This document shows, piece after piece, positions 1,511-18,486 of a DNA stretch of 32,000 nucleotides (its first letter is position 1; each line of letters starts with the position of its first letter). The DNA lies in contig NC_014408.1 of assembly GCF_000145295.1 (NCBI RefSeq), forward strand, positions 810,001-842,000. Direction: 5' to 3'. This DNA comes from Methanothermobacter marburgensis str. Marburg (GTDB lineage: Archaea; Methanobacteriota; Methanobacteria; Methanobacteriales; Methanothermobacteraceae). The position numbers and the translations under genes are program-made. The notes beneath the pieces are model-generated. The model was not told the DNA's origin, did not search any database, and saw only the letters and a program-made list of their open reading frames with translations.

Positions 1511-1606
1511 TCAGATTCTCCCTCAACAGTTATATCCCGCACCGAGGTACTGGGCCCTACATTCAGATTCTATTATAAAGATCATTAGCTGTCTGCACTC
1601 ATCCCA

Positions 1607-2256: not shown

Positions 2257-2330
2257 CAGATATTATGTTAAAGGAAATATTTATTTATTGGGTTTTTCAC
2301 CTCCAGAATCCCCATCAGCACCATAACCGT

Positions 2331-3263: not shown

Positions 3264-5737
3264 TTCATTCCATTCCTGGCCCTCTCATGGAAGTAATCGG
3301 CCATTTCAGCCTCCCCCTGCTCCCTGAGGATGGCCCCCATGAGGTAGCATGCCCCTGCATTTTCTGGCTCCTCCTCAAGGATCTCATGCAGCTTCAGTTT
3401 GGCATCAGAGAGCCTTCCCTCACTGCAGAGGAGTTCAACCTCCTCAAGGACAGCTGGGGCCTCCTCACTGCTTTCCTCCTTGGCATCTCCAGAGACCATA
3501 CCCATGAGGTGTTCGAGTATCATCACTGTGGCGTCCCTGTGGAGCGGTGAATTGTCGTTGCCACATTTTGGGGAGTAGATGCATGACGGGCACCCGTCAC
3601 TGCAGCCGCAGGATGATACAAGTTCAAGTGTCGACCTGAGAAGGTCCTCGAAGACCTCAACACCCTTCTCAGCAAGTCCTATGCCACCCTCAAAGCCGTC
3701 GTAGATGAACACCGTTGCCTCCTGTGTGTCCTGGTGCCATGGGGTTGACAGTCCCCCTATGTCCATCCTGTCGCAGAGCACATGGAGGGGGAAAAGTGCT
3801 ATGAGCGCGTGTTCAGCCCCGTGGAGTCCGCCCTCAAATGTTTCATCATCCCCGTACTCCCCTTCAACCCTCTTTCTGAGAGTTTCGGGTACCGTGAACC
3901 AGAGTGCCCTGGTCCTGAACCTGATGGGTGGAAGTTCAAGGTCCCTCTTACCCAGGACCCTGCTGTAGTTCATGACCCTGTAACCGGTGTAGTGCTCTGT
4001 AACCTCAACCTCCCCGAAGTTGACCTCAAGGCTTCCCACCCGCCTCCTTCTGAGTTTCCTGATCACCCTGAGCTCAGTCTCCCTGAGGACCGATGTATGG
4101 TACTCCACGTCCCTCCTCTCAACGGTTATCCTCCTCTTCTGCAGGTCAAAGTCCCGTACGATGTAGGTGTTGCCGTGGTTCATGAGCACAGCCCCCTCAT
4201 GGGCCTCCCTGTAGGCCTGGGACCTGCTCATGGTCTCAAGTGTCCTGCCCTCACATATCACCGTGAAGGTATCTGATGAGATATCATCCAGCCCATACCT
4301 GAAATGGGGGTCGGTGCTGCACACCAGTCCCTCCTGTGAGATTTCAAGTTCCCCCTCCTCGAGCATCTCCCCTGCCACCGCCATGCTGAAGTCGTGGTCC
4401 AGGAAGTCGTCGAGGGTGAGGGGTAACTCTGATGCCGCGCAGGCCGTATGGTTCCTGAGTATTAACCTGTTTTCAGGGTTGATTATGGCGTTCTCATGGG
4501 GCCTCTCGAAGATGAAGGAGGGGTTCTTCATGATGTACTGGTCCAGGGGGTTCTCGAATGCCACCAGGATAACAAGGGAGTCGTTCCTGTTCCTCCCTGC
4601 CCTCCCTGCCTGCTGCCAGGTGGATATCATGGTGCCAGGGTACCCTGATATTATGACGGCGTCCAGTGACCCGATGTCTATTCCAAGCTCCAGAGCGTTG
4701 GTGGTGGTGACGCCCAGGAGCTTCCCGGATCGAAGCCCTGACTCTATCATCCTCCTCTGATCTGCAAGGTAACCTGCCCTGTAGGATGTCACACGGTCAA
4801 TGAGCTTCCTGTTTTCCCTGTCAAGCTGTTCCCTGGTCCACCGGGTTACAAGTTCAGCCATCTTCCTTGAAACGGTGAAGCAGAGGGTCTGAACACCCCT
4901 CAGAACAAGGTAGGTGAGTATGGATGATGTTTCAAGGTGTGCCGATGGGTCCCCCCTCTTGCTGTAGGGGTTGTAGAGTACGAAGTGCCTGGGGCCGGAG
5001 GGTGACGTGTCCCCTGAGATAACATGGAAATCCAGGCCAGTCAGTTTACCTGAGAACTCCTCAGGGTTGGCAAGGGTTGCACTTGCAAGGATGAACCTGG
5101 GATCTGAACCGTAATGCCTGCAGATCCTCCTTAGCCTCCTTATGAGGAGCGCCACACTTGATCCAAAGACACCCCGGTACTGGTGGGCCTCATCTATCAC
5201 CACGTACCTGAGGTTACTGTAGAACCTCCTCCACTGGTGGTGCCATGGGAGGATACGGTGGAGCTGGTGGGGGTTGGTGAGGACTGCCCGTGAGTTCTCA
5301 CGTATCCATGGCCTCATCTCCCTGGGGGTGTCCCCATCGTAGGTTGCCGGGTTCAGTGTGATTCCAAGCTCAGATTCCAGGTGCCTCAGAACCTTCAGCT
5401 GGTCCCTTGAGAGTGCCTTGGCAGGGTAGATGTAGAGGGCCGTTGCACTCCCATCGAGGGTTAGGGTCTCCATTATGGGGAGGTTGAAGGCCAGGGTCTT
5501 CCCTGAGGCCGTTGGGGTTGTTATGAGAATGTTCCTGCCCTCCCTTATTGCCTCGAGGGCCTCTGCCTGGTGTCGGTAGAGTCTGATGCCATTTCCCTCA
5601 AGGTACTCCATGATGTTCTCAGGGAGATCCTTGACCTCTGCGTATTCAGCTCTCCTTGCGGGGACCGTCTCAACGTGTTCCACCGCATCCCTGAAGCGCC
5701 AGTCCCTGGTGAACCTCTCAAGCACCCTTTTAACCAT
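3260..5737 (-). CDS. DEXH-box SF2 helicase with C-terminal DUF1998 metal-binding domain (YprA/MrfA family)
   Basis: 825-aa track ORF. Helicase motifs TPTASGKT (I), VVIDEAHQYRG (II), ASATL (III) and QQAGRAGR (VI). DUF1998-type Cys cluster CGCSDGCPSCIYSPKCGNDNSPLHR. An extra acidic, TPR-like tail. TATA-like TTTAATAG (minus strand, 5768..5761) lies ~23 nt before the ATG and there is no SD, so the mRNA may be leaderless. Confidence 0.9.
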   Translation of the reverse strand: MVKRVLERFTRDWRFRDAVEHVETVPARRAEYAEVKDLPENIMEYLEGNGIRLYRHQAEALEAIREGRNILITTPTASGKTLAFNLPIMETLTLDGSATALYIYPAKALSRDQLKVLRHLESELGITLNPATYDGDTPREMRPWIRENSRAVLTNPHQLHRILPWHHQWRRFYSNLRYVVIDEAHQYRGVFGSSVALLIRRLRRICRHYGSDPRFILASATLANPEEFSGKLTGLDFHVISGDTSPSGPRHFVLYNPYSKRGDPSAHLETSSILTYLVLRGVQTLCFTVSRKMAELVTRWTREQLDRENRKLIDRVTSYRAGYLADQRRMIESGLRSGKLLGVTTTNALELGIDIGSLDAVIISGYPGTMISTWQQAGRAGRNRNDSLVILVAFENPLDQYIMKNPSFIFERPHENAIINPENRLILRNHTACAASELPLTLDDFLDHDFSMAVAGEMLEEGELEISQEGLVCSTDPHFRYGLDDISSDTFTVICEGRTLETMSRSQAYREAHEGAVLMNHGNTYIVRDFDLQKRRITVERRDVEYHTSVLRETELRVIRKLRRRRVGSLEVNFGEVEVTEHYTGYRVMNYSRVLGKRDLELPPIRFRTRALWFTVPETLRKRVEGEYGDDETFEGGLHGAEHALIALFPLHVLCDRMDIGGLSTPWHQDTQEATVFIYDGFEGGIGLAEKGVEVFEDLLRSTLELVSSCGCSDGCPSCIYSPKCGNDNSPLHRDATVMILEHLMGMVSGDAKEESSEEAPAVLEEVELLCSEGRLSDAKLKLHEILEEEPENAGACYLMGAILREQGEAEMADYFHERARNGMN

Positions 5738-5877
5738 GTTAATAGAATTGGGGGACGATCCTATTAAATGTTTTTCAGTTCATGGATCTCTCCCCACGTG
5801 ATTCAAAATTAATATATACGTGTAAACCCATATTATTTAACAGTGAAGAGGGGAGTGTTAATATCAGGAGAGTAATT

Positions 5878-6354
5878 GTGATTATCCTAGCACTTGCCGT
5901 TCTTGCAGTGGCGGGCTGTGTATCAGAGGAATCAGAATACCAGGACCAGAACCTCAGTAATTACCCGGATGTGAGTCCAGAGGATTACATGACCTCGGAT
6001 ACAGGGAATGCCTCTGGAAAAGGCGAATATGATGCTAGTGGAGTCTGCACCTACGTTGTTGATGGGGACACCATCGATGTTTCAGGCACAGGGAGGATAC
6101 GCCTTGTGGGTGTCAACACCCCTGAGAGGGGGGAGCCTGGCTACAGGGAGGCGAAGGACTTCATGAAATCAATGTGCCTCTCAAGGACCGTGCAGCTCGA
6201 CATAGACGATGCAAAAAGGCATGATAAATACGGGAGGGTCCTCGCCGTGGTCTACGTGGACGGAGTCAACATAAACCGGGAACTCCTCAGGAGGGGATAT
6301 GCTGAGGTCATGTACATTCCACCATCCGAGTTCAACCCATATGAGTGGACCTGA
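5878..6354 (+). CDS. secreted/lipoprotein staphylococcal-type nuclease (thermonuclease family)
   Basis: Track ORF 5782..6354. SNase signature GDTIDV..GRIRLVGVNTPE..GYREAKDF..KRHDKYGRVLAVVYVDG..NRELLRRGYA. In-frame GTG 5878 lies 7 nt after AGGAG (5866-5870). It yields (M)IIILALAVLAVAGC, a lipoprotein-type signal peptide. The ATG at 5782 has no SD. Confidence 0.85.
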   Translation: MIILALAVLAVAGCVSEESEYQDQNLSNYPDVSPEDYMTSDTGNASGKGEYDASGVCTYVVDGDTIDVSGTGRIRLVGVNTPERGEPGYREAKDFMKSMCLSRTVQLDIDDAKRHDKYGRVLAVVYVDGVNINRELLRRGYAEVMYIPPSEFNPYEWT

Positions 6355-6390
6355 ATATCATATCTATATAAAATTAAGGGGGGTGATAAA

Positions 6391-6636
6391 ATGGGGGAAT
6401 TTAAACTCGAAGTTCTTAAGACCATGGGTACACTGATAACTACTGCATTCGGCCTAATAGCGGCTCTTGCCTGGAACGAGGCCATAAAGGCACTGATAAC
6501 ACAGTTCTTCAAGGCAGGCAATGAACTCACCGGACTATTCGTCTATGCGCTCATTGTGACCATCCTTGCAGTCATTGCAACCATCCTAATTGCAAGGAGC
6601 CTTGCTCATTACGGGATAGAACTGCCTGAAGAGTAA
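6391..6636 (+). CDS. small two-TM membrane protein (DUF5654-like, from memory)
   Basis: 81-aa track ORF. SD GGGGGGTGAT sits 3 nt before the ATG. Sequence TAFGLIAALAWNEAIKALI plus a second hydrophobic helix YALIVTILAVIATILIA. Confidence 0.7.
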   Translation: MGEFKLEVLKTMGTLITTAFGLIAALAWNEAIKALITQFFKAGNELTGLFVYALIVTILAVIATILIARSLAHYGIELPEE

Positions 6637-6639
6637 AAA

Positions 6640-8403
6640 TCAAGAACTGTCCCAAGCATCGATTATCTTTTTCTTAAATTTTTTGAGTTCATCGTCACTA
6701 ACTACTTTTCCATTTATAAGTAAGTACCCCTTTAAAGTTCTAAGAATAAAAGACACTATTGCGTGACCTATCATATCCCCCTTAAGGCCATATGGTGGCT
6801 TAGCAAGAAATATTAAATCCTTTTCATTTATTGCACCCCTTTTGGATACTCTTTCTACAGCCACCTCAATCATAGTTTTTACTGGATGGTAGATATTTTC
6901 CATGAAGCGAAGATCATCATCGACAATCCAGTTTCCATTGGAATCACGTAATAGATAAGATAAATAAGATATAATACCTTTTTTAGTCTTTGATTTGAAT
7001 TCATTGAGATTTTCAGAAAGAAGAAATATTTCCGAGATTTTTGGATAATTTCCATTCTTCCATAAGTTTCTATTCTTACGTATATTAGTAATATTCTCAG
7101 GACCTAAAGGGAAAATTCTTCTTGAGAAATCATTGTTTATCATTTTACTAATATGCAAAAGTTTGTTACAATAGCCTGATTCACCATTAATATGCCAAAA
7201 AAAGCCAGAATGCAACATATCAATAATCCATAGGGAAACTATTTGATCCGCTTTTTCATGGTATTCTTCATTTTTTAATGTAAATCCACGTGTTTTGTTA
7301 TTGAGAAACAATTCAAATTCTTTAAAATGTTCACAAGGCACTATAGAAACTAGATTTTTATAATTAAATAACTTTTTCGCTTTATCATTCAATAATATTA
7401 CATCTTCTTTATTTATAGATAAAAAGAGGACTATATTTATGTTCTGGTTGTTGAATTTAAAATTTTGTAGCTGTTTTTCTATCAAGGTAATATTTTTGAA
7501 ATCTAGAAGAATTAAATTAACATCACGATTTGTTGAGTTCTTGAAAAGATTTTTAAATTCTGTTTTATTTCTAAGAATGGCAGAAGGTCTTTTATACATA
7601 TTTTTTATCAATTTTTCTTTGATTTCTGTTTCATATTTCCTAAGTTTTATTTTTTCGTGGTTTTTGAGGGACTTCAAGTAAAATTTAAGTATATTTTTTG
7701 ATTCTAGCTCTTTAAGTTCAACAAAATCTTCATTGAAGTTGGAGATAATTTTAAGTTCCTCTAATATCTTTAAGTGATTTATTAAATTCTTTTTTGATAT
7801 TCCAAATAACTTATACGGCCCTCCAGGGCAGCCTTTATCATAGAGTTCTTCAAAGGAAATTCTAGAGGTTTCAAGATACTCCGCTAATTTATAAAGGCTA
7901 TATCCAACCATATATGACTCAACATTAACTGTTTTTCTGATTATATGTCGAACATAATTACCCTTCATTTCAATAGAAACTAGTTTTCTTAATCTTGAAT
8001 GTCTAAAAAGGTTAAATAAAGCGCTTACAGAGTTCATTGCTGACTTTCTTCCTAAATTTCCATTTTCCAGGACAAGATTTAAAACCTCCTTTTTTGTTAC
8101 CTTTACATTAAATTGTATGAAATCACAGAAAAAATTGACAATAGGAGATCCATAATATAGGTTTATCCATAAAACAAAAAATGTAAAATCTGGATTCAAG
8201 AAATAAATTTCTAATAAATCCTGAGATAAATCTTTTGAGCTTAATAAATTAGCATCTAAAAGCCAGTTGATTACTGCTTTTCTTTGAATAGGGCCAAGGT
8301 TACTCTCAGATTTTATCCAATCTTCACCATAAATCAGATAATCGATGAGCCATTCTTCCCTTAAGCCAAATGTAGAATATCTGTCAAATCCTTTTTTAAG
8401 CAT
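6640..8403 (-). CDS. 587-aa island protein; N-terminal region DUF4007-like (tentative), function unknown
   Basis: Track ORF with GTGAT 3 nt before ATG 8403. FDRYSTFGLREEWLIDYL..LGPIQRKAVINWLLDANLL..FFVLWINLYYGSPIV resembles, from memory, the DUF4007 pattern (F.GHETF.LR.GWL.K..LGVGKNMV.S.RYWL.A.GL..LWLLHW). The C-terminal region contains AKPPYGLKGDMIGHAIVSFILR. I recognised no catalytic motif. Confidence 0.7.
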   Translation of the reverse strand: MLKKGFDRYSTFGLREEWLIDYLIYGEDWIKSESNLGPIQRKAVINWLLDANLLSSKDLSQDLLEIYFLNPDFTFFVLWINLYYGSPIVNFFCDFIQFNVKVTKKEVLNLVLENGNLGRKSAMNSVSALFNLFRHSRLRKLVSIEMKGNYVRHIIRKTVNVESYMVGYSLYKLAEYLETSRISFEELYDKGCPGGPYKLFGISKKNLINHLKILEELKIISNFNEDFVELKELESKNILKFYLKSLKNHEKIKLRKYETEIKEKLIKNMYKRPSAILRNKTEFKNLFKNSTNRDVNLILLDFKNITLIEKQLQNFKFNNQNINIVLFLSINKEDVILLNDKAKKLFNYKNLVSIVPCEHFKEFELFLNNKTRGFTLKNEEYHEKADQIVSLWIIDMLHSGFFWHINGESGYCNKLLHISKMINNDFSRRIFPLGPENITNIRKNRNLWKNGNYPKISEIFLLSENLNEFKSKTKKGIISYLSYLLRDSNGNWIVDDDLRFMENIYHPVKTMIEVAVERVSKRGAINEKDLIFLAKPPYGLKGDMIGHAIVSFILRTLKGYLLINGKVVSDDELKKFKKKIIDAWDSS

Positions 8404-8487
8404 GATATCACTGATAACTACCTTTTTGTTGCTTCATTGACTATAATATGGAACATCGAAAGTATTTAAAAGTAGAAAATTTAATTT

Positions 8488-8502
8488 ATCTATATAAAAT
8501 TT
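8488..8502 (+). promoter_or_regulatory. archaeal TATA-box candidate for the 8542 gene
   Basis: TATCTATATAAAATT, with TATATAAA at 8491-8498, lies ~45 nt upstream of ATG 8542 in the divergent 138-bp spacer. Confidence 0.4.
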
Positions 8503-8541
8503 TCCCCTCATTTATAACGTTATTACTAATATGGTGATTTC

Positions 8542-9642
8542 ATGCAAAGATTGGAATTCAAAAAAGACGCCATATTTTTACCTTATCTCGCAGGATACTT
8601 TGATGCAAGAGGTTCATTCATTGTTGACAAATATAATAACATTATAATGAATTTTTATGGAGATGAAAAATTCTTAGAAGAACTTAATTCTCTTTTTGGC
8701 GTTGGTACTGTTACCTTAATGCCAAGTGCTAGTTGGAAGATTATGAACAACGATATTTCTGTCATTTTAGATCAGCTGATATCCTATATAATAATAAAAA
8801 AGGACCAAGCATTACAAGTAAATAACACTATAAAAGATAAAGAGTTCTGTTTTGTTATAAAAGAACCTCCTGAGGACATAAATTTTTTTGATTATGTTAA
8901 AGAGGAATGGTTTTATTTATACCTTGTTGGCTATTTTGATGGTTCCTCCCGCTGGAATTTAAAGAAATATAAGAAATCAAATGAATATTATCTTCAGATC
9001 AGCCTCATATCCAAATATGAAGAGCTGGTTGTACTTCTATCTGAGGTTTTTAATTCAGGTTATATAATCCCCTACAATGATAAGTTTAAATTTATAGTTA
9101 TGTTCCAAGATTCACTCAGATTAATCGATGAGTTAGAACCTTTATTGATAAATAAAAGATCTGAATTAGAAATGGCACTAAAATTCAAAAAACTTCTTTA
9201 TTTAGGCAAATACGAAGAAATAGAGAAACTTATGGACGAATTTAAGTCAGAAAAACAAAATTTATCGAATAATACAACAAGAATAATTAATGTGTGTGAA
9301 AAGTTATTTAGAAAGGTTCAGTCTAAAATTAAATACCTCGAAATAAGTAAATCAAAATTCTGTCAGGAAGCCATCTACTATTCCTATGACAACTTAGACC
9401 TGTTTAAGAGCACCGAAGATTTGTGTGAGGGTAAAAAAAAGGAATTTCAGATAGCAGTCAACATAAACAACCATGTTGAGGAAAAAATAAATGCTTTATC
9501 TAATTTTGATGAATCTAAAAGTTCTGCAATAAGAAGGGCCATAACGTTCTATTTAAATGATTTAGACTCTGAAAATGATGATAACAAATTAAATAAAGAT
9601 ATTGATCCATTTGATTTGCTTGATCAATTAAAAAAACAATAG
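8542..9642 (+). CDS. double-LAGLIDADG-fold protein with degenerate catalytic positions, fused to a C-terminal ribbon-helix-helix (CopG-like) domain
   Basis: 366-aa track ORF with SD GGTGAT 3 nt before the ATG. Motif 1 is LAGYFDARG (nt 8587-8613). Motif 2 is LVGYFDGSS (nt 8923-8949), 112 aa later, which is typical single-chain spacing. The C-terminus KEFQIAVNINNHVEEKINALSNFDESKSSAIRRAITFYLNDL reads as strand-helix-helix. Confidence 0.75.
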   Translation: MQRLEFKKDAIFLPYLAGYFDARGSFIVDKYNNIIMNFYGDEKFLEELNSLFGVGTVTLMPSASWKIMNNDISVILDQLISYIIIKKDQALQVNNTIKDKEFCFVIKEPPEDINFFDYVKEEWFYLYLVGYFDGSSRWNLKKYKKSNEYYLQISLISKYEELVVLLSEVFNSGYIIPYNDKFKFIVMFQDSLRLIDELEPLLINKRSELEMALKFKKLLYLGKYEEIEKLMDEFKSEKQNLSNNTTRIINVCEKLFRKVQSKIKYLEISKSKFCQEAIYYSYDNLDLFKSTEDLCEGKKKEFQIAVNINNHVEEKINALSNFDESKSSAIRRAITFYLNDLDSENDDNKLNKDIDPFDLLDQLKKQ

Positions 9643-9652
9643 GAGGACTCTA

Positions 9653-10153
9653 TTGGCTCCCCCCAAACTTCCAGCTTCAAAAAAATGGAGAGAATCTCTA
9701 GAAAAAGATTTTGGATTTACCTACATTTCATCTAGAAAAGAATTACCTGATCCTGATAGTGTCATATGGACTACCTCCTGCTCAAAAACAAAAAAGACGC
9801 AGAGATTAGGAAGGCCTAGGGACTTTTACAATGGACGTTATCACAACCGATTTTATGAGTACGTCGAGAATAATAAACTCACATATGGCATACTTTCTGA
9901 TAAATATGGTATTCATATGTTTGATGAAGAATTAGGATACTACGACATACATCCACAGGAATTAACACTAGAAAAAAAGGAAGAACTTGGAAAATTTATC
10001 AATAGAAAAGCAAAAAGATATGGGTTTGACGAAATTATTTTTTATTACCCAAGCCCACTAATGTCCAAACCTTACTTTGAAATTCTATGGTTCTCTAATT
10101 TAAAGGTGTATTATATGACTAAATTTAATTTAACTAGGGAAATAAAACCCTAG
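9653..10153 (+). CDS. 166-aa island protein, function unknown (DUF6884-like pattern, tentative)
   Basis: Track ORF. TTG start lies 6 nt after AGGAGG (9641-9646). VIWTTSCSKTKK..PRDFYNG..YGILSDKYGIHMFDEELGYYDIHPQEL resembles, from memory, the CSxxK...LY...ILSAKYGL...PYD pattern. The 3' end overlaps the convergent 1411-aa gene by 24 nt. Confidence 0.6.
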   Translation: MAPPKLPASKKWRESLEKDFGFTYISSRKELPDPDSVIWTTSCSKTKKTQRLGRPRDFYNGRYHNRFYEYVENNKLTYGILSDKYGIHMFDEELGYYDIHPQELTLEKKEELGKFINRKAKRYGFDEIIFYYPSPLMSKPYFEILWFSNLKVYYMTKFNLTREIKP

Positions 10154-13100
10154 TTTGATATAACCCTTCTTAATGAGCCCCTCCTGAGCTTTTTTAAAGT
10201 CTATATTTTCTTTTAACGCTCTTTTTTTAAGTTTCTCATAATCAATAATTCCCGCTTCACTCAGGGAATTTATAGCCTTTAAAAGGCCCAATTCGTCAGG
10301 ACTGAGATCATCTTTCATTTGATATTCAAATTCTTTCTTAATTTTTAACTTTAAATCATCTATTTGTGACGCTGAAACTTCTTGTTCCGTTATATCATTT
10401 TTTAGTTTTGAAGCGAACTCTTTTATTAAAGCCTCAAGAGCCACTCTCGAATCAGCACTAATTTTAACGCGGTAAAGAACATTTTCATATTCTTTAATAA
10501 ATTCTAACTGTTTTTTCCTATAATTCCTCCAAATTTCTTTTATAGGCTTGTTAATATCATAATTCAAGTCATGATTCAAATTATCCAATAGTTCAAGCCA
10601 ATTTCCGTGATCCTTCCCATAAGCTCTTAAGTCTTGCAAACGTAGATCCTCATACTTCTCTTTGATAGAATTAAATTTCTCTCTATGTTTATTTAATTCG
10701 TTTTTTTCTAATTTACCATCATCAAATACTTTATTAGAAATATCTAATATTTCATGAGTATGGCCAATTGTATCCAATAGCATCTTTTCCTTATTCATTA
10801 AGGCATTCAAGTAGTTTAATAACATGTCGACATTATCTAACTTATCTTTTAGTTCTTTAATCCTTTCTTTTATTTGATCCCTTAGTTCTCTCAAAGAAAT
10901 GGGAGATATCCTCTTTTCAGTCACATTTATGCTAATCGAATTTATCTCTTCAAAAAACTCCGTTGTTAGTTTTAATTTTGGGTCAATCTGAATACTTTTT
11001 AGCTTACCAGCGACTTTATTTCTTCTTTTTTTAAGTTCATCAATATCCAAACTTTTTAAAAGTGAGTAGGGTGTTCTAGACCTGAATTCTTCTTCCTTTT
11101 GTTTAATTTTATAGAACTTTAGGTTATAATAATATGCTGTTGATGGAGATTTATCAAATTTGAAGTGATCAAAATCGTCAAGATTTGAAATTGCATTTTT
11201 TAATTCTTCCTTTGTGCAGGAACTTTCGTATAGTTTTTTTATTCCTTCAAAATCATTTAACATGTTGGTATATTCCTTAATACTTTTAACTCCACCATCA
11301 ATTTTTAATTTCAGTATAGTTTCACAATCCTTAGAGATTGTTTCAAGGAATCTTTCAAAATCACTTTTTATCTTTTTAATTTCATGAAAAGATTCTTTAC
11401 TTTTTCTGGCCGCGCCTTCAAAAAAGGTTTTTAAACAACGTTGGTTTTTGCCGCAAGAAAATATTTCCGTTAAAAGCTTTTTACATATGAAAATTTTTGT
11501 TGAAACTGCTTCTTTATAATCTGGGTGTCCATAATATTCTTTTATAAAATCAGAATTTTCATTAACGAAACTAGTAAACTCATCTAACATGATAAGTTTA
11601 TGACCCTTCTTTTTGGTCATGAAAATATGTCCAAAGAGTTTGTATAACTCTTTTCTTTCAAGCTCTTTATTAAATTTATCTAAATGTTTCAAAATCTCTT
11701 TGTATTCCTCTTCTATGTCTGTAATTTCTATTTCATCTCTATTTCTCTTTATTTTATTTTTATATTCTAAAATATTCAGAAATAGATCAGAAAAAATGTT
11801 TTTACTTTTTGATTTGAGTATAAAATAAAGATTGAGGTCGTTCTCTTTAATTTTGCCTTCCTTCTTGATTATTTCATATATTCTCCTTTCAACAGGATGT
11901 TCAATGACTTTATATTTACCATCTAATTCTTCTAAAAAGCCATGTTCACGTAACTCAATGGATATTTTCTTGACATCCTCTGGGGAATCTTCAAGGTCGC
12001 TTCTAATAAAACCTTTCTTAGTTCCATAAAGTTTAAATTTTAATATGCCATTCAGGTTTTTCTCTAAAACTTCATTTGCAGACAGTGGTTCATTAATATA
12101 ATTTAAATATAATTTAAGCGTATCAGCAAATTTACTTAAGTTTTCGGTTGCTACTTGATCTACAACTAATCCCTTTTTCTTCTGGATTTTAAGCCATTCT
12201 CTAATATTTTCTTGAAGCTTAAGATCATCAAAAATATTTTTAAATTCTATATTAAGTAATGACTTGTCAACAGATTTATTGCGTGACTCGTATGCACAAA
12301 GAAGCCGTTTAGTTAATGTTTGATGAAGATGGATATCTATAAGTTGAGATGTCCCTTTTTTACCTAATCCCTCCAATTCAAGGCGTTCGCGGGCTCTTTG
12401 TGTAAACTCTCCATTATATACTAGGAGACAGCCATGAATACTAAAATCATTTTTTAGAGTTTCCGAAATTTCTTTAATATGAGTTTCTTTAATGTCTCCC
12501 TGCACAAATTTAGTTAATAATCTAATATCAACTTCTAGATCAGGATCATGTAACTTTAAAACCACTTCGTTTTCTCTCAACTCCGAACCTGTAACCTCAA
12601 CTTTCTTGTAGGTAACCTTAATTTTTTTATAAGTTTCAAGTCCTTCAATAAATGCACTTTCGATATTGTTTTTATACTCCTCTGCAAGGTTTAATGAGAT
12701 TCTCCGCCAAATTGATAATCTCTCTTCTTTCTTGAGAATATATCCTAAGAACCTTGGGATAGGAGTAGGATACAAGATTTCTGCAAAGGTATTTGAAATT
12801 ATGTAATAGCGCTCACTTTCATCCACCATGTCCCTGAAAAGTGCCTCTATCTCGTTTAAATAATCTTCATTTACCTCATTCTTGAATAGTTCTTTAAGGC
12901 TTTCTGATGTAGTTGGAATAAATATTCTCGTATTTAAAGCATCTGAATTGCCTTCAAAAAATGTTATAGAATCTTCGAATTGATCCAGTGGTTCCGAGTA
13001 ATCACCTATCTGAAGAACCTCTTTTTGCAGAATGTCATCGGTTTTTATATAATCACTCAACTTTTCTTTTATATCTTCAAAACTTAGATGTTCTTTGAGC

Positions 13101-14365
13101 GGAAATACAGGTATAATAGCGTTATCGATACCATGTTCATTTTCTACCTTCTCATTGATGATACGAATAAATTTATATACGCTGGCTTCTTCGCTATCGA
13201 TGAATTTAGATAAATCTCCTATGGAAATAGGCCTCATATAAGCTATTAAAATGTTAAATAGGTTTATTAAAGATTTTATTTTATCTTTGGACACTTCCGA
13301 TGTATCTTTAAGATATCTTAAGATATTTTTATAATTTTCCACATCAACACAAAGTGTTTGGGCTCCAAAAACGTATATTCTAGTCTCTTGTAGAAAATCA
13401 ATAAAGTGGTCATATTCAACTACTTCGAAAAAGTCTTCATCATAGTTCGCAAATTTAGTAAAAAGTTCAATAAACAACTTCTTCAAGTTACCCAAATTTC
13501 CCAGGCTTAGTCTATGAAGAGTATCAAATATTCCACTATCTCCCAGCGGATAAGGAGTTGGTTCTGATCCATCGTACAATCTTTTAATAAGATTTCTCAA
13601 AAATTCTATGGATTCCCACTTTCTTATAGTGCTTAATTCTACCTCATGAACTCTCCTTTCATAACCACCCGCAATTAAACTTAGTTCTTCATCTGTTTCG
13701 AGCCTATATTTAGCATCAGGTGTTAATGAGATAAATAAATGTACAGAACCTGAAAAATCACCATTAGCATCTATTTTTTTATAACTGCCATTAATAAGCT
13801 CTTTAATCCCTGAAATCATACTTTTAAGAGTCTCAGGAGTATTTAAAAGCTCTTCAAATTCGTCTATGAATATAAATATCCTTTGAGATCCATTGTAATC
13901 TCCCAAGATGAAGTCAAGTGCATCCTCAAGATAGTCCTCTGGAAATTCGTAACTTTTAATTGATGGTAAACCAATTTCATTTTCAGCGTTTACGCCCTCA
14001 AATATCGTGGAAAGTATTCTTACAGATGAAAGAGAGCTTCTTTCAATAACATTGATCATTTCTTTGGTCTTTAAAATATTAGAAAGAGTTGATGCGGACA
14101 CAAAGAAGGCCATATGGCCCTTTTCTTCTAGTTCTTTTCTAATAAAGCCATTATAAAGCTCAGTTTTTCCCTGACCCCATTCTCCTATAATATTACAAGC
14201 GTTAAGACCTTTTGAAACTTCACACATTTTTATATAATCTCTTAGCTTGTTTATAACATGTTTTCTACTTTCTATCTCCTCAAAACTTGTTCCATTTTCC
14301 TCTTTTGAAACCCAAGAAGTTAAATTTTCTTTTTTGTATATCTGAGTTTTCATAAAATCACCCAT
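10130..14365 (-). CDS. giant (1407-1411 aa) P-loop NTPase with a long K/E-rich, helical-looking C-terminal region
   Basis: Track ORF. Walker A GEWGQGKT (aa 61-68, nt 14162-14185). Walker B IFIFIDEFEE (aa 163-172, nt 13850-13879). ATG 14365 overlaps the HerA-like stop by 1 nt (TGATG). The second ATG at 14353 sits 3 nt after GGGTGAT and may be the real start. Confidence 0.85.
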   Translation of the reverse strand: MGDFMKTQIYKKENLTSWVSKEENGTSFEEIESRKHVINKLRDYIKMCEVSKGLNACNIIGEWGQGKTELYNGFIRKELEEKGHMAFFVSASTLSNILKTKEMINVIERSSLSSVRILSTIFEGVNAENEIGLPSIKSYEFPEDYLEDALDFILGDYNGSQRIFIFIDEFEELLNTPETLKSMISGIKELINGSYKKIDANGDFSGSVHLFISLTPDAKYRLETDEELSLIAGGYERRVHEVELSTIRKWESIEFLRNLIKRLYDGSEPTPYPLGDSGIFDTLHRLSLGNLGNLKKLFIELFTKFANYDEDFFEVVEYDHFIDFLQETRIYVFGAQTLCVDVENYKNILRYLKDTSEVSKDKIKSLINLFNILIAYMRPISIGDLSKFIDSEEASVYKFIRIINEKVENEHGIDNAIIPVFPLKEHLSFEDIKEKLSDYIKTDDILQKEVLQIGDYSEPLDQFEDSITFFEGNSDALNTRIFIPTTSESLKELFKNEVNEDYLNEIEALFRDMVDESERYYIISNTFAEILYPTPIPRFLGYILKKEERLSIWRRISLNLAEEYKNNIESAFIEGLETYKKIKVTYKKVEVTGSELRENEVVLKLHDPDLEVDIRLLTKFVQGDIKETHIKEISETLKNDFSIHGCLLVYNGEFTQRARERLELEGLGKKGTSQLIDIHLHQTLTKRLLCAYESRNKSVDKSLLNIEFKNIFDDLKLQENIREWLKIQKKKGLVVDQVATENLSKFADTLKLYLNYINEPLSANEVLEKNLNGILKFKLYGTKKGFIRSDLEDSPEDVKKISIELREHGFLEELDGKYKVIEHPVERRIYEIIKKEGKIKENDLNLYFILKSKSKNIFSDLFLNILEYKNKIKRNRDEIEITDIEEEYKEILKHLDKFNKELERKELYKLFGHIFMTKKKGHKLIMLDEFTSFVNENSDFIKEYYGHPDYKEAVSTKIFICKKLLTEIFSCGKNQRCLKTFFEGAARKSKESFHEIKKIKSDFERFLETISKDCETILKLKIDGGVKSIKEYTNMLNDFEGIKKLYESSCTKEELKNAISNLDDFDHFKFDKSPSTAYYYNLKFYKIKQKEEEFRSRTPYSLLKSLDIDELKKRRNKVAGKLKSIQIDPKLKLTTEFFEEINSISINVTEKRISPISLRELRDQIKERIKELKDKLDNVDMLLNYLNALMNKEKMLLDTIGHTHEILDISNKVFDDGKLEKNELNKHREKFNSIKEKYEDLRLQDLRAYGKDHGNWLELLDNLNHDLNYDINKPIKEIWRNYRKKQLEFIKEYENVLYRVKISADSRVALEALIKEFASKLKNDITEQEVSASQIDDLKLKIKKEFEYQMKDDLSPDELGLLKAINSLSEAGIIDYEKLKKRALKENIDFKKAQEGLIKKGYIKLGFYFPS

Positions 14366-16047
14366 CAGTACTCAAATCCTTCACGTAGTCTTTTTAGAGT
14401 TGAAACAACATCAGTTGTACCCATAGGATGTGGAACTATCCTATCACTCTTAGGAATTTTGATCATCATTGGAAAGGGTAATTTGTTCATCTGACCTGTT
14501 ACTATCATATGGCCCTGAGTTAGACGTGTTAAGCGATTTTCAAGTGAAGAAGGAAGACCCCCAGTGGCTGTTCTAACATAAGAAACATCATCGGGAGAAA
14601 TCCTATGTATAAAAAATGTGTTGCACATAGACAAAACTATTTTATCAATAAATGAAGGTCTTTGAGTTACAATGCATAGCGACAATCCAAATTTTCTACC
14701 CTGAGTTGCAATTAAAGATAACTTATTTTTAGCTAAACTGGAGCTTATAGGATAACTCCTATCTGGAATAAAGTTCTGGGCTTCCTCTATTAAGAAAATT
14801 AAATATCTTGTTCTATTTTCAATTTTATATTTTGAGAATTTGTTAAAAAGCAAATTAGCCAAATATGTCATTACAAGCTGTTTTACTTGAATATCAACAC
14901 CAGTAGCCCCCTCCTCAGAAAAATCAATTATTGCAATCCCGCCGTTTTCTGTAATGTCATCAATAAAGTCATCTCTGGTTAATTCTGATTCAGATTTCGC
15001 TGATAATATCCCATAATTATATTCTATTTCCCTAAATTTTTCGAATGCTCTTTCAATAGCAGGTTTAGTGGCAGAGGCTATTCTTTTGTTATCAAAGTTT
15101 CTTAATTCTCTTATCAATTCTTCATAGCTATCATCATCCACAAAGAAATCATGTAGTGACTCATAACCTAAGTTTTCTTTTATATACTCGAAGAGAGTTA
15201 CTATTCCATTTACTTGAAGTTCTGCACCATCTAAACTTCCTTTATAATACATTACAATTGTTTCAGCCATTTCTTTAACTGAAAGGCGGTCTAAATCAAT
15301 ACCAATGACAGGTTCTCCCATTAATTCATGGTTTTCATTAGCTATGTGAGGAAATACAAATCTTTTAACCCATCCTACAGGACTTATTCTGGGGTCTACA
15401 TCCCCATAATCATGTTTTTTAAAATATTTATCATACTCTAAGTAATCTCCATTTGCATCTATGATCATCATAGGAAATGAAACAGCACGACTTTCACTTG
15501 CTTTAATACCCATAAACTTCTCAATCAAGACTCCTGTACTAAAAGATTTTCCACTACCTGTTGTACCGAATACTGCCATGTGCATTGGGACTTTCTCAAT
15601 ATCTAAAGGTATTGGTGCCTTTTTGTAACCAAATAGTGTTCCAAACCATATATAACCAGGTTCATCCCTTGAAATACCAAATATATCTTCATAGTGCTCT
15701 TCAAGATCTATCTTTAAAACTTCATCCCCTGGTTTTGGAGGATAATTGACTTCAGTGTTAGGAAGTTGAATTAAAAGATCCAATTCACATATCTCATACT
15801 TGCGGGCGATGTTATCCGGAATATGTAAACCTTTACGACGTGCCTCAGACCAAGGATCATCTTCAGTATAATAAGCGTTAAATGGAACTATTTTAGCTAC
15901 TCGTGCAAGGATCTTACTGCCCATTTTTGTAGCAACTAAAACCAGCATCCCCTCATAAATATTTCCTGACTCAGAACTCTCCAATAGTTGAAATTTAGCA
16001 GTCCTTGTTGTCGCACCGCTTAAAACAATACCAATTTTATCTTTAAT
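14365..16047 (-). CDS. HerA-like (FtsK-HerA superfamily) hexameric ATPase/translocase
   Basis: The track ORF runs 14365..15984 from a TTG start. Walker A GTTGSGKS, Walker B YLIFLIEEAQNF, and CIVTQRPSFID. The frame stays open upstream to TAA 16050..16048. It encodes IKDKIGIVLSGATTRTAKFQL, which resembles the canonical HerA N-terminus (IGYVIG.ATT...). The only start-like codon is ATT 16047..16045, 4 nt after GGGGTGAT. Confidence 0.85.
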   Translation of the reverse strand: MKDKIGIVLSGATTRTAKFQLLESSESGNIYEGMLVLVATKMGSKILARVAKIVPFNAYYTEDDPWSEARRKGLHIPDNIARKYEICELDLLIQLPNTEVNYPPKPGDEVLKIDLEEHYEDIFGISRDEPGYIWFGTLFGYKKAPIPLDIEKVPMHMAVFGTTGSGKSFSTGVLIEKFMGIKASESRAVSFPMMIIDANGDYLEYDKYFKKHDYGDVDPRISPVGWVKRFVFPHIANENHELMGEPVIGIDLDRLSVKEMAETIVMYYKGSLDGAELQVNGIVTLFEYIKENLGYESLHDFFVDDDSYEELIRELRNFDNKRIASATKPAIERAFEKFREIEYNYGILSAKSESELTRDDFIDDITENGGIAIIDFSEEGATGVDIQVKQLVMTYLANLLFNKFSKYKIENRTRYLIFLIEEAQNFIPDRSYPISSSLAKNKLSLIATQGRKFGLSLCIVTQRPSFIDKIVLSMCNTFFIHRISPDDVSYVRTATGGLPSSLENRLTRLTQGHMIVTGQMNKLPFPMMIKIPKSDRIVPHPMGTTDVVSTLKRLREGFEY

Positions 16048-16052
16048 TTAAA

Positions 16053-17147
16053 TCACCCCATGTTATTCATTATAATCATGTCCTCAATGCTGCCTGTTGC
16101 ATGTGTTCTTGCAAGAATCTCTTCGTAAATAACCTGCGCAGCACCCCCCCTTATTTTACACTTCTCGTGGGCAATCTCAATAGGTACCGGTATATTCTGG
16201 CCTGGAAATGTCCACTCATATGACGCAGTAACTGCCCGTTGCACTCTCAAGTTAACATCACCTTTATCATACTTCATTGGAATATCAAGCCGGATAATTT
16301 CTGAAGAAAAATCTTTCTGGAAGAAAACAGAAAATATTCTGATACCATAATTAGAATATCTTCTACTTATTTCATCCTTTAATTCAAGAGGATGTGTGAA
16401 AAGAACATCATCATAATTGTTATCAAGCCGGTATGCAGTGAAAAAGTAAGCAAAAAGGTTTTTATCTACTGAGAAATTTTTGAGTAACTTATTTCTCTCT
16501 AATTTTAAAATCCTTTCATATTCCCTTAGGAAATGGGAATCAATACATTTTTTAACACATCCTACTAGCAAAGACTGGGATGTAGCTTTTTTTATTGCAT
16601 CACATCTGTATTCAACATAATTTTCATCAATATAACCTGGTGGATCTACAACTGGCCCGTCAATAAATACAATTGATTCTGTGTTCTTCGTATTCCAATC
16701 TTCTAAAGCCTTGGTTTCCCCTAAGAGCATTCTTCTTGAAGCTTCACCATCAATAGATTTGTGTTTATTCTCATCAATTTCCTCTATTCCTGCAGCATAA
16801 ACGTCAACAACAGGTTCACCAGATAATCCTTTTTCAAAAAGTATCCTCACAATTGAATAAGGAGCGTACCATTTAGAACCAATAGGCCCTACACTATAAA
16901 AACTGCCATCGATACCAACGCTACACCATTTTCTAAACTGACCATAATCTTTAAGGTCATCGATAGTAAAAATGATTTTTTTTAGAGAAGATAAGTCTTT
17001 AAATACCTTTTTTGATTGTTTCTTTATCAAACGAAAAGTTCTACTTATTTCATATCCCTTTTCATTGGCACTATCAATTAAATTTATTAAAACTTCTCCA
17101 TCGGTTTCATTGAATTCTATTCTTTTTTTTATTTCATCTATATCCAT
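16053..17147 (-). CDS. NurA-like (RNase H-fold) nuclease
   Basis: 364-aa track ORF. NurA-type motif order: VGIDGSFYSV (Asp), LLGETKALE (Glu), IVFIDGPVVDPPGY (Asp), PVPIEIAHEKCKI (His). It lies immediately upstream of the HerA-like gene, as in canonical nurA-herA pairs. Confidence 0.7.
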   Translation of the reverse strand: MDIDEIKKRIEFNETDGEVLINLIDSANEKGYEISRTFRLIKKQSKKVFKDLSSLKKIIFTIDDLKDYGQFRKWCSVGIDGSFYSVGPIGSKWYAPYSIVRILFEKGLSGEPVVDVYAAGIEEIDENKHKSIDGEASRRMLLGETKALEDWNTKNTESIVFIDGPVVDPPGYIDENYVEYRCDAIKKATSQSLLVGCVKKCIDSHFLREYERILKLERNKLLKNFSVDKNLFAYFFTAYRLDNNYDDVLFTHPLELKDEISRRYSNYGIRIFSVFFQKDFSSEIIRLDIPMKYDKGDVNLRVQRAVTASYEWTFPGQNIPVPIEIAHEKCKIRGGAAQVIYEEILARTHATGSIEDMIIMNNMG

Positions 17148-17159
17148 TATAATACACCA

Positions 17160-18299
17160 TTACCCCAGTTTCTGATGAACCACTTCCTGAAGAGCGTAAT
17201 TAAAATGTTTTGAAAAAAATCCTTTTTTTAATCTTTCATTGCAGAAATCAAAACAACTGCCGTCCAATAATTTTTCATAATACAAATCCCTTTCCCTCAT
17301 AAAAACCCAAGCGTTATGTATTGCTCTGCTCTTAAAATCAGAGTCTAATACTTCTATTTTCTCTTTTAAAGATTTGTATCTGCAAATTGGGCATTCACAA
17401 AGATCTAAGAGTTTTTTGTCATCTTTACTTAAAGAAGGCCTTCCATTGTTTTTATTAAGAGGATATCTATCACCTACTCCTGGCAGTTGAATACAGCCAT
17501 AGGCCGCTTTTAATCTCCAACCCATTGAGTCAAGGGAATCAACACCTAAGGAGTACATCAGATGCATGGATTTCGCGCTACCAATACCAAAAACATGCAA
17601 TAAAGAATCTGGGAATTCCTTCCTTACCATTCTTACCGAGTCTATTATGAAGTTAACACTATTTTTAAATTTTTTACTCCCTCTGCATTTAAAAATCAAA
17701 GGAACTATACTGCCCAATCCAATAATAGGAGGATTCTCATGAATCTTCTTTATGTCATTACAACTATTTCTAAGATCTTCTAAAGAATAACCATGAACAA
17801 CAGGTATTAACGGAATTTTACCATTTTTTAACATTAAATCAGAATTTTGAAGAGTTTTCATCCATCTATCCTTATTCTTCATCTCATTTTCCAAGGGATT
17901 GAGCGGATGATCAAGCACAACACCTAGATCTGGCTTGGACATTTCATAAAGTTCAAGTATGTCTTCTGGATCAACTTCTAAACTATCCTTTTTCTGAAAG
18001 GAGAATCCTCCAGAGTCCATTATCACTAAACCATCGAAGCCCAGATATTTGTGGATCCCTTTTTCGCATATTTCTTCGTATACTCTTCGATTTCTAATAA
18101 TTTCATATGCACTAACCATGATGGTCTCAATATCAAAATGATTCCATATATGTGGCTGAGCTGAGGGAAGGTGCCCTAGCCATAATAAAGGTGTATAAAC
18201 TGATTTTTTGTTAATTTTTAACTTTGCAGATCTTACAAGAGGAAATATATCATCAACATAATAATCTTCAAAGGAAACTTTACTACTCCACAAGCTCAC
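17160..18299 (-). CDS. TGT-fold base-exchange enzyme (tRNA-guanine transglycosylase superfamily; DpdA-like catalytic-domain-only protein)
   Basis: 379-aa track ORF with a GTG start 3 nt after GGGTGAT. Motifs in TGT order: VIMDSGGFSF (D95), VVLDHP, PVVHGYSLEDLR, IIGLGSIVP, LLHVFGIGSAKSMHLMYSLGVDSLDSMGW. Zinc motif CECPIC...H (C301, C303, C306, H328; nt 17316-17399). No PUA or other tRNA-binding extension. Confidence 0.8.
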   Translation of the reverse strand: MSLWSSKVSFEDYYVDDIFPLVRSAKLKINKKSVYTPLLWLGHLPSAQPHIWNHFDIETIMVSAYEIIRNRRVYEEICEKGIHKYLGFDGLVIMDSGGFSFQKKDSLEVDPEDILELYEMSKPDLGVVLDHPLNPLENEMKNKDRWMKTLQNSDLMLKNGKIPLIPVVHGYSLEDLRNSCNDIKKIHENPPIIGLGSIVPLIFKCRGSKKFKNSVNFIIDSVRMVRKEFPDSLLHVFGIGSAKSMHLMYSLGVDSLDSMGWRLKAAYGCIQLPGVGDRYPLNKNNGRPSLSKDDKKLLDLCECPICRYKSLKEKIEVLDSDFKSRAIHNAWVFMRERDLYYEKLLDGSCFDFCNERLKKGFFSKHFNYALQEVVHQKLG

Positions 18300-18486
18300 C
18301 TAATCACCCGCGCTTGATATGATAAATTATTACTGTAATGAATACATTGAGTTAGTAGCACTTCTATATATTCTCTAATCTTTACTATTAAATGATAACT
18401 ATTAACAAAAAATAAAAAAATTAAATAATAGCTACAAAGATAAATGTCATGTTACGAAAAATAACCATGATAAAAATAAATTAATA

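Follow-up and report, generated by a model that had tools for sequence, protein, structure and literature searches.

A conserved, apparently unnamed cassette of a TGT-family enzyme, NurA, HerA and a giant ATPase in Methanothermobacter marburgensis, a candidate 7-deazaguanine-based defence system

What is a TGT-family base-exchange enzyme doing in an operon with a nuclease, a DNA translocase and a giant ATPase? The question is raised by a low-GC island of Methanothermobacter marburgensis str. Marburg, which lies in a stretch of 32,000 nucleotides (contig NC_014408.1, positions 810,001 to 842,000) that is called the window below and supplies all coordinates. A preliminary description of this DNA had proposed a defence or DNA-modification system based on 7-deazaguanine-type base exchange, and the proposal is supported: the folds hold, the genes co-occur, and no named system matches. 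The genes appear to form a conserved, so far unnamed defence cassette that is Dpd-like (Dpd being the DpdA-B-C modification and DpdD-K restriction system of Salmonella Montevideo and other bacteria) and related to BRC (BREX-Related Capture). It probably is a mobile defence system akin to restriction-modification, in which the restriction module is new and 7-deazaguanine would be the self mark. There are five core genes, listed here with their upstream region, and one accessory gene in this lineage.

10130-18299, minus strand: four genes, for TGT, NurA, HerA and the giant protein
17160-18299, minus strand: TGT-family base-exchange enzyme, 379 amino acids (aa), catalytic TIM barrel and zinc subdomain only
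16053-17147, minus strand: NurA-family nuclease, 364 aa (Pfam NurA, 7.1e-10)
14365-16047, minus strand: HerA/FtsK-family hexameric ATPase-translocase, probably 560 aa from ATT, called as 539 aa from TTG 15984
10130-14365, minus strand: giant protein, 1411 aa, N-terminal ORC/Cdc6-clade AAA+ ATPase and winged-helix modules
9653-10153, plus strand: DUF6884 protein, 166 aa (Pfam DUF6884, 4.6e-8), YaaA/DpdC-like, with an ArcS-core-like fold
18300-18486, minus strand: AT-rich upstream region of the TGT-NurA-HerA-giant operon, 187 nt, predicted promoter

The four open reading frames on the minus strand lie where the preliminary description had placed them, and its assignment of the TGT, NurA and HerA families stood up to profile and structure searches. 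The unit is larger than the four genes then proposed, with the DUF6884 gene as a fifth core gene that had been missed and a LAGLIDADG/RHH gene as an accessory. For comparison, 135 loci (numbered with the prefix L) were fetched through homologues of the TGT and of the giant protein and annotated with profiles built for this analysis; distinct loci were counted after collapsing TGTs that are at least 95% identical. The four genes occur together outside this genome, and the five-gene set of TGT, NurA, HerA, giant and either DUF6884 or DUF5591 was found in 44 distinct complete loci of archaea and bacteria, as blocks of 8.4-9.3 kb, so the arrangement is far beyond chance. Architecture A, the type of the window (TGT-NurA-HerA-giant-DUF6884), accounts for 12 of the 44 loci and architecture B (NurA-HerA-giant-DUF5591-TGT) for 31, and one locus carries both small proteins. 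Among the metagenome loci centred on the TGT, 11 extend at least 8 kb to each side; 10 of these have the full set, and the eleventh has the giant and DUF6884. It is almost certain that the five-gene set is a functional unit.

Archaeal carriers include Methanobacteriaceae, Archaeoglobales, Thermoplasmata, Bathyarchaeia, Nitrosopumilus, Aenigmatarchaeota, Korarchaeia, Hydrothermarchaeum, Methanodesulfokora and Thermoproteota; bacterial carriers, known as metagenome-assembled genomes, belong to Chloroflexota, Bacillota, Bacteroidota, Cyanobacteria, Poribacteria and an actinobacterium. This patchy cross-domain spread, together with the low GC of the island, fits a mobile defence cassette. In Methanobacterium-type loci TGT, giant and DUF6884 are kept and NurA-HerA is replaced by a DUF499 / SNF2+NOV_C / 877-aa / HEAT cluster, a swap that fits a modification module with exchangeable restriction modules. 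In these loci (L001, L002, L065 and L066, Methanobacterium sp. BAmetb5 type, 1-16001) the TGT-giant-DUF6884 genes follow genes for DUF499 (BrxC-like), SNF2+NOV_C, an 877-aa protein and HEAT repeats, with neither NurA nor HerA; the arrangement is kept across contigs, with TGTs only about 50% identical to that of the window. Methanobacterium sp. BAmetb5 is listed among the type 3 BREX BrxHII helicases in the BRC supplement (PMC12839542). One or two PBS-lyase-type HEAT-repeat proteins are encoded immediately upstream of TGT in several architecture-A loci (L061:7199-9989, L062:2-1838, L027, L001:8098-10041, L066:7876-9945), the window being without them.

The TGT-family enzyme matches Pfam TGT (4.4e-18), and its best PDB match is arcTGT 1iq8 (1.9e-23, over residues 20-337 of 582). 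It has a CxCxxC...H zinc site and all of the arcTGT catalytic aspartates: D95, D130, D257, C301, C303 and H328 are invariant and C306 nearly so in 24 members of the clade, and these residues (D95, D130, D257, C301, C303, C306, H328) align with D95, D130, D249, C279, C281, C284 and H307 of 1iq8. Its GSIVPL aligns with the GGVVPL motif of arcTGT, which belongs to the preQ0 pocket. The C1, C2 and PUA tRNA-binding domains are lacking, the protein measuring 379 aa against 582 aa in 1iq8. It scores 108 bits with the TgtA model TIGR00432 (cut-off 350) and 50.3 bits with the DpdA model NF041059 (cut-off 200); the PADLOC DpdA match (3e-13) covers a partial region only, and the PDB DpdA structure 7ui4 is matched at E 0.066. 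Because it falls short of the curated cut-offs for both TgtA and DpdA, the enzyme is placed by its sequence in a distinct TGT clade; a TgtA/arcTGT identity was rejected on the bit score and the missing C1, C2 and PUA domains. Its homologues number 209 proteins, mostly archaeal, and the sole viral relatives are the DpdA genes of the Sulfolobus viruses STSV1 and STSV2. STSV DpdA genes pair with ArcS2, and these viruses carry deazaguanine DNA (PMC10516641). The enzyme is predicted to be a DNA-guanine transglycosylase that inserts a 7-deazaguanine base, as its preQ0-type pocket suggests.

The best clue to the chemistry is given by the small DUF6884 protein, the likely counterpart of DpdC and ArcS2. 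All 12 architecture-A loci encode it, and in the 31 architecture-B loci DUF5591 takes its place. In PMC11701544 DUF6884 is treated as distantly related to YaaA/DUF328 and is given the motifs CxxxK and LSAxxG, and DpdC, which converts dPreQ0-DNA to dADG-DNA, belongs to DUF328 (PMC12839542). In the window protein and its homologues CxxxK (C43..K47) and LSDKYG (81-86) are invariant. The structural model (pLDDT 91.9) has AF0587 (2q07, probability 0.99) as its best PDB fold neighbour, and the DUF5591 profile of architecture B matches the same structure by sequence (3.6e-10); in BFVD the model matches phage DUF6884 proteins and one 'YaaA'. An hhalign comparison of the two profiles pairs CSKTK with PCxxxKP and LSDKYG with ISEPFG. 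The gene has no DpdC or PF03883 match at sequence level (Pfam, PADLOC). In 31 loci the DUF5591 partner is recognised by Pfam (1e-11 to 5e-18), and the C, K, P and S of the ArcS PC-X3-KPY-X2-S motif are invariant. DUF5591 is the catalytic core of archaeosine synthase, and co-expression in E. coli of DpdA2 and ArcS2 (a stand-alone DUF5591 core) of Vibrio phage nt-1 converted dPreQ0 to dG+ in DNA (PMC10516641). The predicted substrate of the DUF6884 protein is the inserted 7-deazaguanine (nitrile chemistry) or the flipped base in DNA.

A further link to 7-deazaguanine is a PF02592/YhhQ gene immediately upstream of TGT in seven architecture-A loci of bacterial type and in two BRC-like loci. PF02592 is the YhhQ/COG1738 family that was shown to transport preQ0 (PMC5372724). 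PreQ1 riboswitches and other Rfam RNAs were found neither in the window nor in six transporter-bearing loci. The transporter genes, all upstream of TGT, are the following.

L019:5216-5923: YhhQ/COG1738 transporter, system locus
L098:3-707: YhhQ/COG1738 transporter, system locus
L100:1885-2592: YhhQ/COG1738 transporter, system locus
L104:180-566: YhhQ/COG1738 transporter, system locus
L112:314-1195: YhhQ/COG1738 transporter, system locus
L113:659-1540: YhhQ/COG1738 transporter, system locus
L114:309-965: YhhQ/COG1738 transporter, system locus
L082:7601-8224: YhhQ/COG1738 transporter, BRC-like locus
L083:3073-3696: YhhQ/COG1738 transporter, BRC-like locus

DUF5591/ArcS, DUF6884/DpdC and the YhhQ transporter are three independent lines that point to a free 7-deazaguanine as the substrate of the TGT, followed by processing on the polymer. 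That the enzyme handles a 7-deazaguanine base is judged quite probable.

NurA and HerA look active, since their catalytic motifs are intact. In NurA, which adjoins HerA in every complete locus, D80 (GIDGS), E144 and D163 (IDGP) are invariant among 63 homologues from related loci, and the protein is predicted to be the restriction effector. HerA is recognised by Pfam DUF87 (2.5e-24) and by PADLOC HerA (2.9e-36), with Walker A (G140-S147) and Walker B (E400/E401) conserved in 62 homologues. All NCBIfam HerA models remain below their cut-offs, the repair HerA NF040937 reaching 102 bits against 800.

The giant protein contains a P-loop with a weak AAA_22 match; Walker A (GEWGxGKT) and Walker B (IFIDEFEE) are invariant. 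An AlphaFold model of residues 1-720 (pLDDT 84.5) has as its top Foldseek PDB matches Cdc6/Orc1 (2qby, 1fnn), the archaeal Walker ATPase paby2304, TnsC, MuB and BrxC 9zdx. Members of the family match AAA_22, nSTAND_NTPase5 and WHD_MCM8 (MCM8-type winged helices). A beta-rich domain at about residues 583-680 has a weak NA-iREase1 match and is possibly like an inactive restriction endonuclease, and the C-terminal residues, about 700 in number, form a coiled coil that matches helical bundles only. Sequence-only PDB searches gave coiled-coil noise and were uninformative. Homologues number 39 in one database, and the family amounts to 178 cluster representatives among 1.84 billion proteins; Methanothermobacter sp. 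MT-2 also has the giant in its genome. The giant is predicted to be a hub that loads on DNA and links modification with restriction.

In the mechanism proposed, the TGT would swap guanine in host double-stranded DNA for the 7-deazaguanine precursor preQ0, which methanogens would draw from their archaeosine pathway and the bacterial versions would import through the YhhQ-type transporter. DUF6884, or in most relatives the DUF5591/ArcS core, would then process the inserted base in DNA, a step that would parallel those of DpdC (dPreQ0 to dADG) and phage ArcS2 (dPreQ0 to dG+). The ORC/Cdc6-type AAA+ giant would load on DNA and supply ATP-dependent DNA handling, as DpdB does for DpdA, and as a hub it would read the modification or sequence state. 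On unmarked DNA it would license the HerA translocase and the NurA nuclease to thread and degrade the invader, which would give the cassette an antiviral function. A DNA target and a defence role are suggested by the loss of the tRNA-binding domains, by the obligate linkage to a DNA translocase, a nuclease and an ORC/Cdc6-type loader, by the foreign composition of the island, its patchy cross-domain spread and its modularity, and by the precedent of Dpd and of the 'capture systems' discussed below. That DNA is the target and restriction-modification the logic is held to be somewhat probable; of the two modes first considered, modification/restriction and sensor/effector, the former is favoured by the evidence.

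A fuller version is put forward tentatively, with doubt on balance. It would make the cassette the first cellular archaeal 7-deazaguanine DNA-modification system, a rare but widespread five-gene machine in which a new TGT clade and an ArcS-core/DUF6884 finisher lay down a dG+- or dADG-like chromosomal mark, with DUF6884 as an enzyme on deazaguanine in DNA and an ORC/Cdc6-type loader replacing DpdB. The HerA-NurA motor, steered by the giant, would destroy unmarked DNA, and the mark would be the self signal that stops processive degradation.

Several observations weigh against the main reading, that of a restriction-modification-like system with a 7-deazaguanine mark. The TGT is nearer to the tRNA enzyme arcTGT and falls below the DpdA cut-off, so an RNA substrate is compatible with the sequence. 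The direct link between DUF6884 and DUF5591 is weak in sequence (hhalign probability 7%, E 0.005), so the relation is carried mainly by the common 2q07 match and the operon position; the structural DUF6884 match is modest (TM 0.45), and YaaA 5caj is outside the top PDB matches. The B. subtilis DUF6884 protein YfjM was reported to bind abasic or RNA-base lesions (PMC11701544), which would also fit a repair or damage-sensing role for DUF6884. IMG/VR viral contigs yielded no member of the TGT clade, and PLSDB plasmids no giant. No preQ0 biosynthesis genes lie in the window; archaeal carriers presumably make preQ0 for archaeosine. Lastly, in Desulfurococcales and Pyrodictiaceae the giant has distant homologues that are accompanied by NurA, or by HerA and NurA, and lack a TGT. 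These giants (L028-L055, from Desulfurococcales, Pyrodictiaceae and Ignicoccus pacificus CP006868) are 20-26% identical and about 1400-1600 aa long, sometimes split in two genes, and stand with NurA alone, with HerA and NurA, or alone, mostly without TGT. Since such TGT-less sets exist, the nuclease arm would be able to work without the modification arm; the degradative arm may predate the modification arm and work alone.

The alternative that survives best, and that is still unlikely, is a system directed at the invader's bases, with no self-marking. The TGT and DUF6884/DUF5591 would either excise guanine and leave covalent or abasic lesions, or recognise viral 7-deazaguanine DNA, and the giant with NurA-HerA would then degrade the DNA, a logic like that of type IV restriction or of glycosylase defence. 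Targets for it exist in archaeal viruses and phages, which carry dPreQ0, dG+ or dCDG DNA made by DpdA-ArcS2 (PMC10516641); the lesion binding of YfjM (PMC11701544) and the distant giant-NurA sets without TGT would suit it, and glycosylase-based defences against modified phage DNA are reported in a preprint (bioRxiv 10.1101/2025.10.29.685425). The preQ0 importer directly upstream of TGT in nine loci argues otherwise: it indicates that the TGT consumes a free 7-deazaguanine base, and an attack-only enzyme would need no importer. The insertion of 7-deazaguanine by a TGT is effectively irreversible, which makes the enzyme a poor eraser of such bases and counts against this alternative. The ArcS-core partner, moreover, is known only to process preQ0 already inserted (PMC10516641).

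The viral DpdA-ArcS2 pairs themselves (Vibrio phage nt-1, Sulfolobus virus STSV2; PMC10516641) share with the 31 architecture-B relatives a TGT-family gene beside a stand-alone DUF5591; the window has DUF6884 in that place. The viral pair guards viral DNA and lacks partners of the nuclease or ATPase type, whereas the present genes are cellular and fixed to NurA, HerA and the giant.

It is rather improbable that the island is simply a member of a named system, a PglZ-less BRC or an archaeal Dpd, and thus nothing new. The earlier expectation that no named system would match is borne out: PADLOC gives only generic HerA matches and sub-threshold DpdA matches, and neither NCBIfam nor Pfam points to a named system. 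With Dpd the cassette has in common a TGT reduced to its catalytic domain, a small partner like the YaaA/DUF328 superfamily (DpdC there, DUF6884 here), an ATPase beside the transglycosylase (DpdB there, by proposal the giant here) and a multi-gene ATPase/nuclease restriction arm in a genomic island. It differs in that its TGT is of another clade, nearer to arcTGT, that DUF6884 and DUF5591 are undetected by DpdC models, that its arm consists of NurA-HerA and an ORC/Cdc6-type giant instead of the DpdD-K helicases and nuclease, and that it is mostly archaeal. The TGT reaches a quarter of the DpdA cut-off, and the rest of the Dpd proteins were unmatched: no island protein matches DpdB/ParB (PADLOC, Pfam, NCBIfam), and DpdD-K have no PADLOC or NCBIfam match within the island, DpdJ/DpdF-like scores occurring only outside it, in the host-GC YprA-like helicase (3260-5737). 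Assignment to Dpd was therefore rejected on DpdA, DpdB and DpdD-K.

BRC is the closest published composition and narrows the distance from known systems. It was described from 45 taxa with PglZ, DUF6079, a STAND NTPase, DUF4007, HerA/FtsK, GNAT and TGT, with HerA/FtsK universal and TGT in a subset of loci, and no DpdB or DpdC counterpart was reported (PMC12839542, NAR 2026). HerA/FtsK, an ORC/Cdc6-clade giant ATPase (DUF6079 in BRC) and the same TGT clade are common to both. A 587-aa protein encoded next to the cassette matches BrxP in its C-terminal, DUF4007-like part. Two BRC-like loci, L082 and L083, were recovered with the TGT alignment; between them they have a same-clade TGT (47% identity), a YhhQ-type transporter, HerA and DUF6884. 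L083 (3815-14811) reads transporter, TGT, PglZ, 255-aa, 133-aa, 1302-aa ATPase, HerA, then DUF6884, and L082 reads transporter-TGT-PglZ up to the end of its contig. It may be that BRC includes DUF6884 as a component so far overlooked.

The differences are nonetheless considerable. None of the seven island proteins matches PglZ (which L083 has), DUF6079, a BrxB-like STAND NTPase or GNAT, and no small STAND NTPase gene is present in the island. The nuclease is NurA and the giant is a separate family: none of 23 members matches DUF6079, so that only the fold resembles that of the BRC protein (ORC/Cdc6-like, with BrxC among the matches), and the giant profile misses the 1302-aa ATPase of L083. DUF6884 or DUF5591 is constant in the window system, whereas NurA, DUF6884 and DUF5591 are absent from the main text and text supplements of the BRC paper (PMC12839542). 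The 587-aa gene is missing from all relatives, including the syntenic L056. Searches for NurA linked to TGT, or for NurA, HerA, a transglycosylase and defence, found no paper in a coverage that excludes most subscription journals, and the DUF6884/DUF5591 literature yielded no description of this gene set.

The Orc/Cdc6 plus HerA/FtsK 'capture systems' proposed by Rakesh, Aravind and Krishnan, with DndFGH (PMC10853773), resemble the cassette in a HerA/FtsK translocase, a winged-helix Orc/Cdc6 AAA+, a possible inserted inactive restriction-endonuclease domain, a nuclease effector and mobile neighbourhoods. They differ in having nucleases of restriction-endonuclease fold and no base-modification module; NurA and TGT are unmentioned in PMC10853773.

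A housekeeping role is very improbable. Here a HerA-NurA end-resection paralogue and a Rad50-like coiled-coil giant would be linked by chance or regulation to tRNA archaeosine enzymes (a split TGT and an ArcS core). Archaeal HerA-NurA normally act with Mre11-Rad50 in double-strand-break resection, and like that system the window has NurA and HerA folds with intact motifs, adjacent and probably translationally coupled, near a long coiled-coil ATPase; the giant has a long coiled coil like Rad50, the TGT is closest to arcTGT, and split ArcS/TGT domains occur in some archaea (PMC10516641). The window copies are, however, divergent paralogues far below the equivalog cut-offs (HerA at 102 of 800 bits for the repair equivalog, NurA with no equivalog match), island-borne and TGT-linked, and no Mre11 or Rad50 gene was found in the window or the loci. 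Neither the foreign GC, nor a patchy cross-domain spread that includes bacteria, which have no archaeosine, nor the rarity of the family (178 representatives in 1.84 billion proteins), nor a TGT without PUA or other tRNA-binding domain suits a repair system.

Protein deazaguanylation as in type IV CBASS, in which a TGT-like protein binds or installs 7-deazaguanine on a partner such as the giant to regulate it, is barely credible: Cap10 is indeed a TGT-family protein repurposed for nucleobase-protein conjugation in defence, but it has lost the zinc site, has a remodelled nucleic-acid surface and needs the QueC-like Cap9, whereas the zinc site and catalytic aspartates of the window TGT are invariant and the window has no QueC-like or CD-NTase gene. 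Type IV CBASS itself (Cap9/Cap10/Cap11) was rejected, with no CD-NTase, QueC or OGG match and a zinc site kept unlike that of Cap10, as was QatABCD, with no PADLOC Qat match and no QueC or TatD domains.

The layout of the cassette agrees with the preliminary description at its junctions: the TGT-NurA gap is 12 nt, and TGATG at 14363-14367 holds both the HerA stop and the giant start. A second possible start of the giant, ATG 14353 (M5; 14351-14365), fits the N-terminal consensus of the homologues about as well as ATG 14365 and would turn this junction into an 11-nt gap in place of the 1-nt overlap. The ATT at 16047 suggested earlier is the likely start of HerA, which makes the NurA-HerA gap 5 nt: translation of the 21 codons that precede TTG 15984 gives IKDKIGIVLSGATTRTAKFQL, a match to the N-termini of HerA homologues, and after an in-frame TAA at 16050-16048 ATT 16047 is the sole in-frame start candidate, no ATG, GTG or TTG being available. 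The start region at 15985-16047 (minus strand) thus seems to open with a non-canonical ATT, and L056 and L057 show the same truncated open reading frame call. The 187-nt spacer at 18300-18486, which coincides with the GC boundary of the island, is AT-rich as claimed and contains a TATA-like AATATATA, and a GGTGAT Shine-Dalgarno precedes the GTG start by three bases; the single promoter proposed there is a prediction from these elements. A sigma-70 promoter scan gave fewer sites than shuffled sequences, and its bacterial consensus is uninformative for an archaeon.

On the plus strand, the DUF6884 gene (9653-10153) is convergent with the giant gene, and the 3' ends overlap by 24 nt. The overlap measures 24 nt in the window (10130-10153), 24 nt in L056 (18132-18155) and 11 nt in L003 (18219-18229); it is kept in methanogen-type loci, bacterial-type loci having DUF6884 co-directional, and may let antisense transcription or transcriptional interference regulate the writer and nuclease arms. 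Upstream of DUF6884 lies the accessory gene.

8542-9642, plus strand: LAGLIDADG-like protein with a C-terminal RHH-like region, 366 aa, 10 nt upstream of the DUF6884 gene and co-oriented with it

Its matches to Pfam LAGLIDADG_1 (2e-4) and PADLOC HEase (1e-3) are weak. Homologues stand at the same position in L056, L057, L061, L062 and L027, that of L061 matching LAGLIDADG_1 and RHH_1. The gene is a lineage-specific accessory, possibly a DNA-binding or regulatory factor, and from the layout it is predicted to be co-transcribed with DUF6884.

The host of the island is a hydrogenotrophic methanogen with a genome of about 52% GC, as is also seen from a flanking gene of host-like GC for an Hmd-related protein (TIGR01724, 1.7e-192). 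GC falls to 27-35% across about 6.6-18.4 kb of the window, against about 50-56% in both flanks. The claim of a foreign-composition island next to repair and nuclease genes holds for the composition, and those neighbours proved to have host GC and to lie outside the island. The flanks also encode a roadblock-like protein, and the remaining neighbours are the following.

3260-5737: YprA-like DECH helicase (TIGR03817, 3.6e-229), host GC
5782-6354: secreted-type thermonuclease, host GC
23109-25865: UvrD/PcrA-like helicase with a C-terminal Cas4-like nuclease domain, host GC
6640-8403, minus strand: 587-aa protein at the far edge of the island, 27% GC

The YprA-like helicase, the thermonuclease and the UvrD-Cas4-like gene were ruled out as island members by composition and by synteny with L056; the insertion site of the island may already have been a defence or repair neighbourhood. 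L056 (Ga0134100_1000010, a metagenome contig of 248 kb) is syntenic with 8520-29002 of the window at 71-81% nucleotide identity and represents a related methanogen with the same island at the same chromosomal position, its low-GC block reaching from TGT to the LAGLIDADG-like gene. Island identity (76%) resembles flank identity (71-81%), so the island is old in the methanogen lineage, yet it has retained about 33% GC in a genome of about 52% GC. Past the LAGLIDADG-like gene, the place of the 587-aa gene is taken in L056 by a DUF2357/PD-(D/E)XK gene. Since synteny ends there, the limits of the unit are 8542-18486 and the 587-aa gene is separate cargo. Its protein, which lacks an ATPase domain, matches the BrxP part named above (2e-39, PADLOC) and a middle portion of BrxC/PglY (4e-31); missing from 135 of 135 related loci, the gene was ruled out as a member of the system, and the protein may be an orphan DNA-binding component of BREX/BRC type, or cargo of its own. 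A search for att sites of the island found no tRNA in the window, and direct repeats around the island did not exceed what AT-rich sequence gives by chance.

Marks of 7-deazaguanine in DNA have so far been known from bacterial Dpd, phages and archaeal viruses. If the proposed reading is true, an archaeal chromosomal system would be the third setting for this epigenetic chemistry and would explain what the DpdA/ArcS2 modifications of archaeal viruses compete against. The HerA-NurA pair, a classical archaeal repair motor, would gain a defined role in immunity, and the cassette would offer a tractable case of an ORC/Cdc6-type ATPase that couples a DNA writer to a DNA shredder. A transglycosylase that inserts into double-stranded DNA with a separable specificity or loader protein could serve as a site-directed base-replacement tool. 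For the protein families concerned, a function would become assignable to DUF6884, which is a large family, and to stand-alone DUF5591 proteins, and the comparison suggests that published BRC has an overlooked DpdC-like component and a precursor importer.

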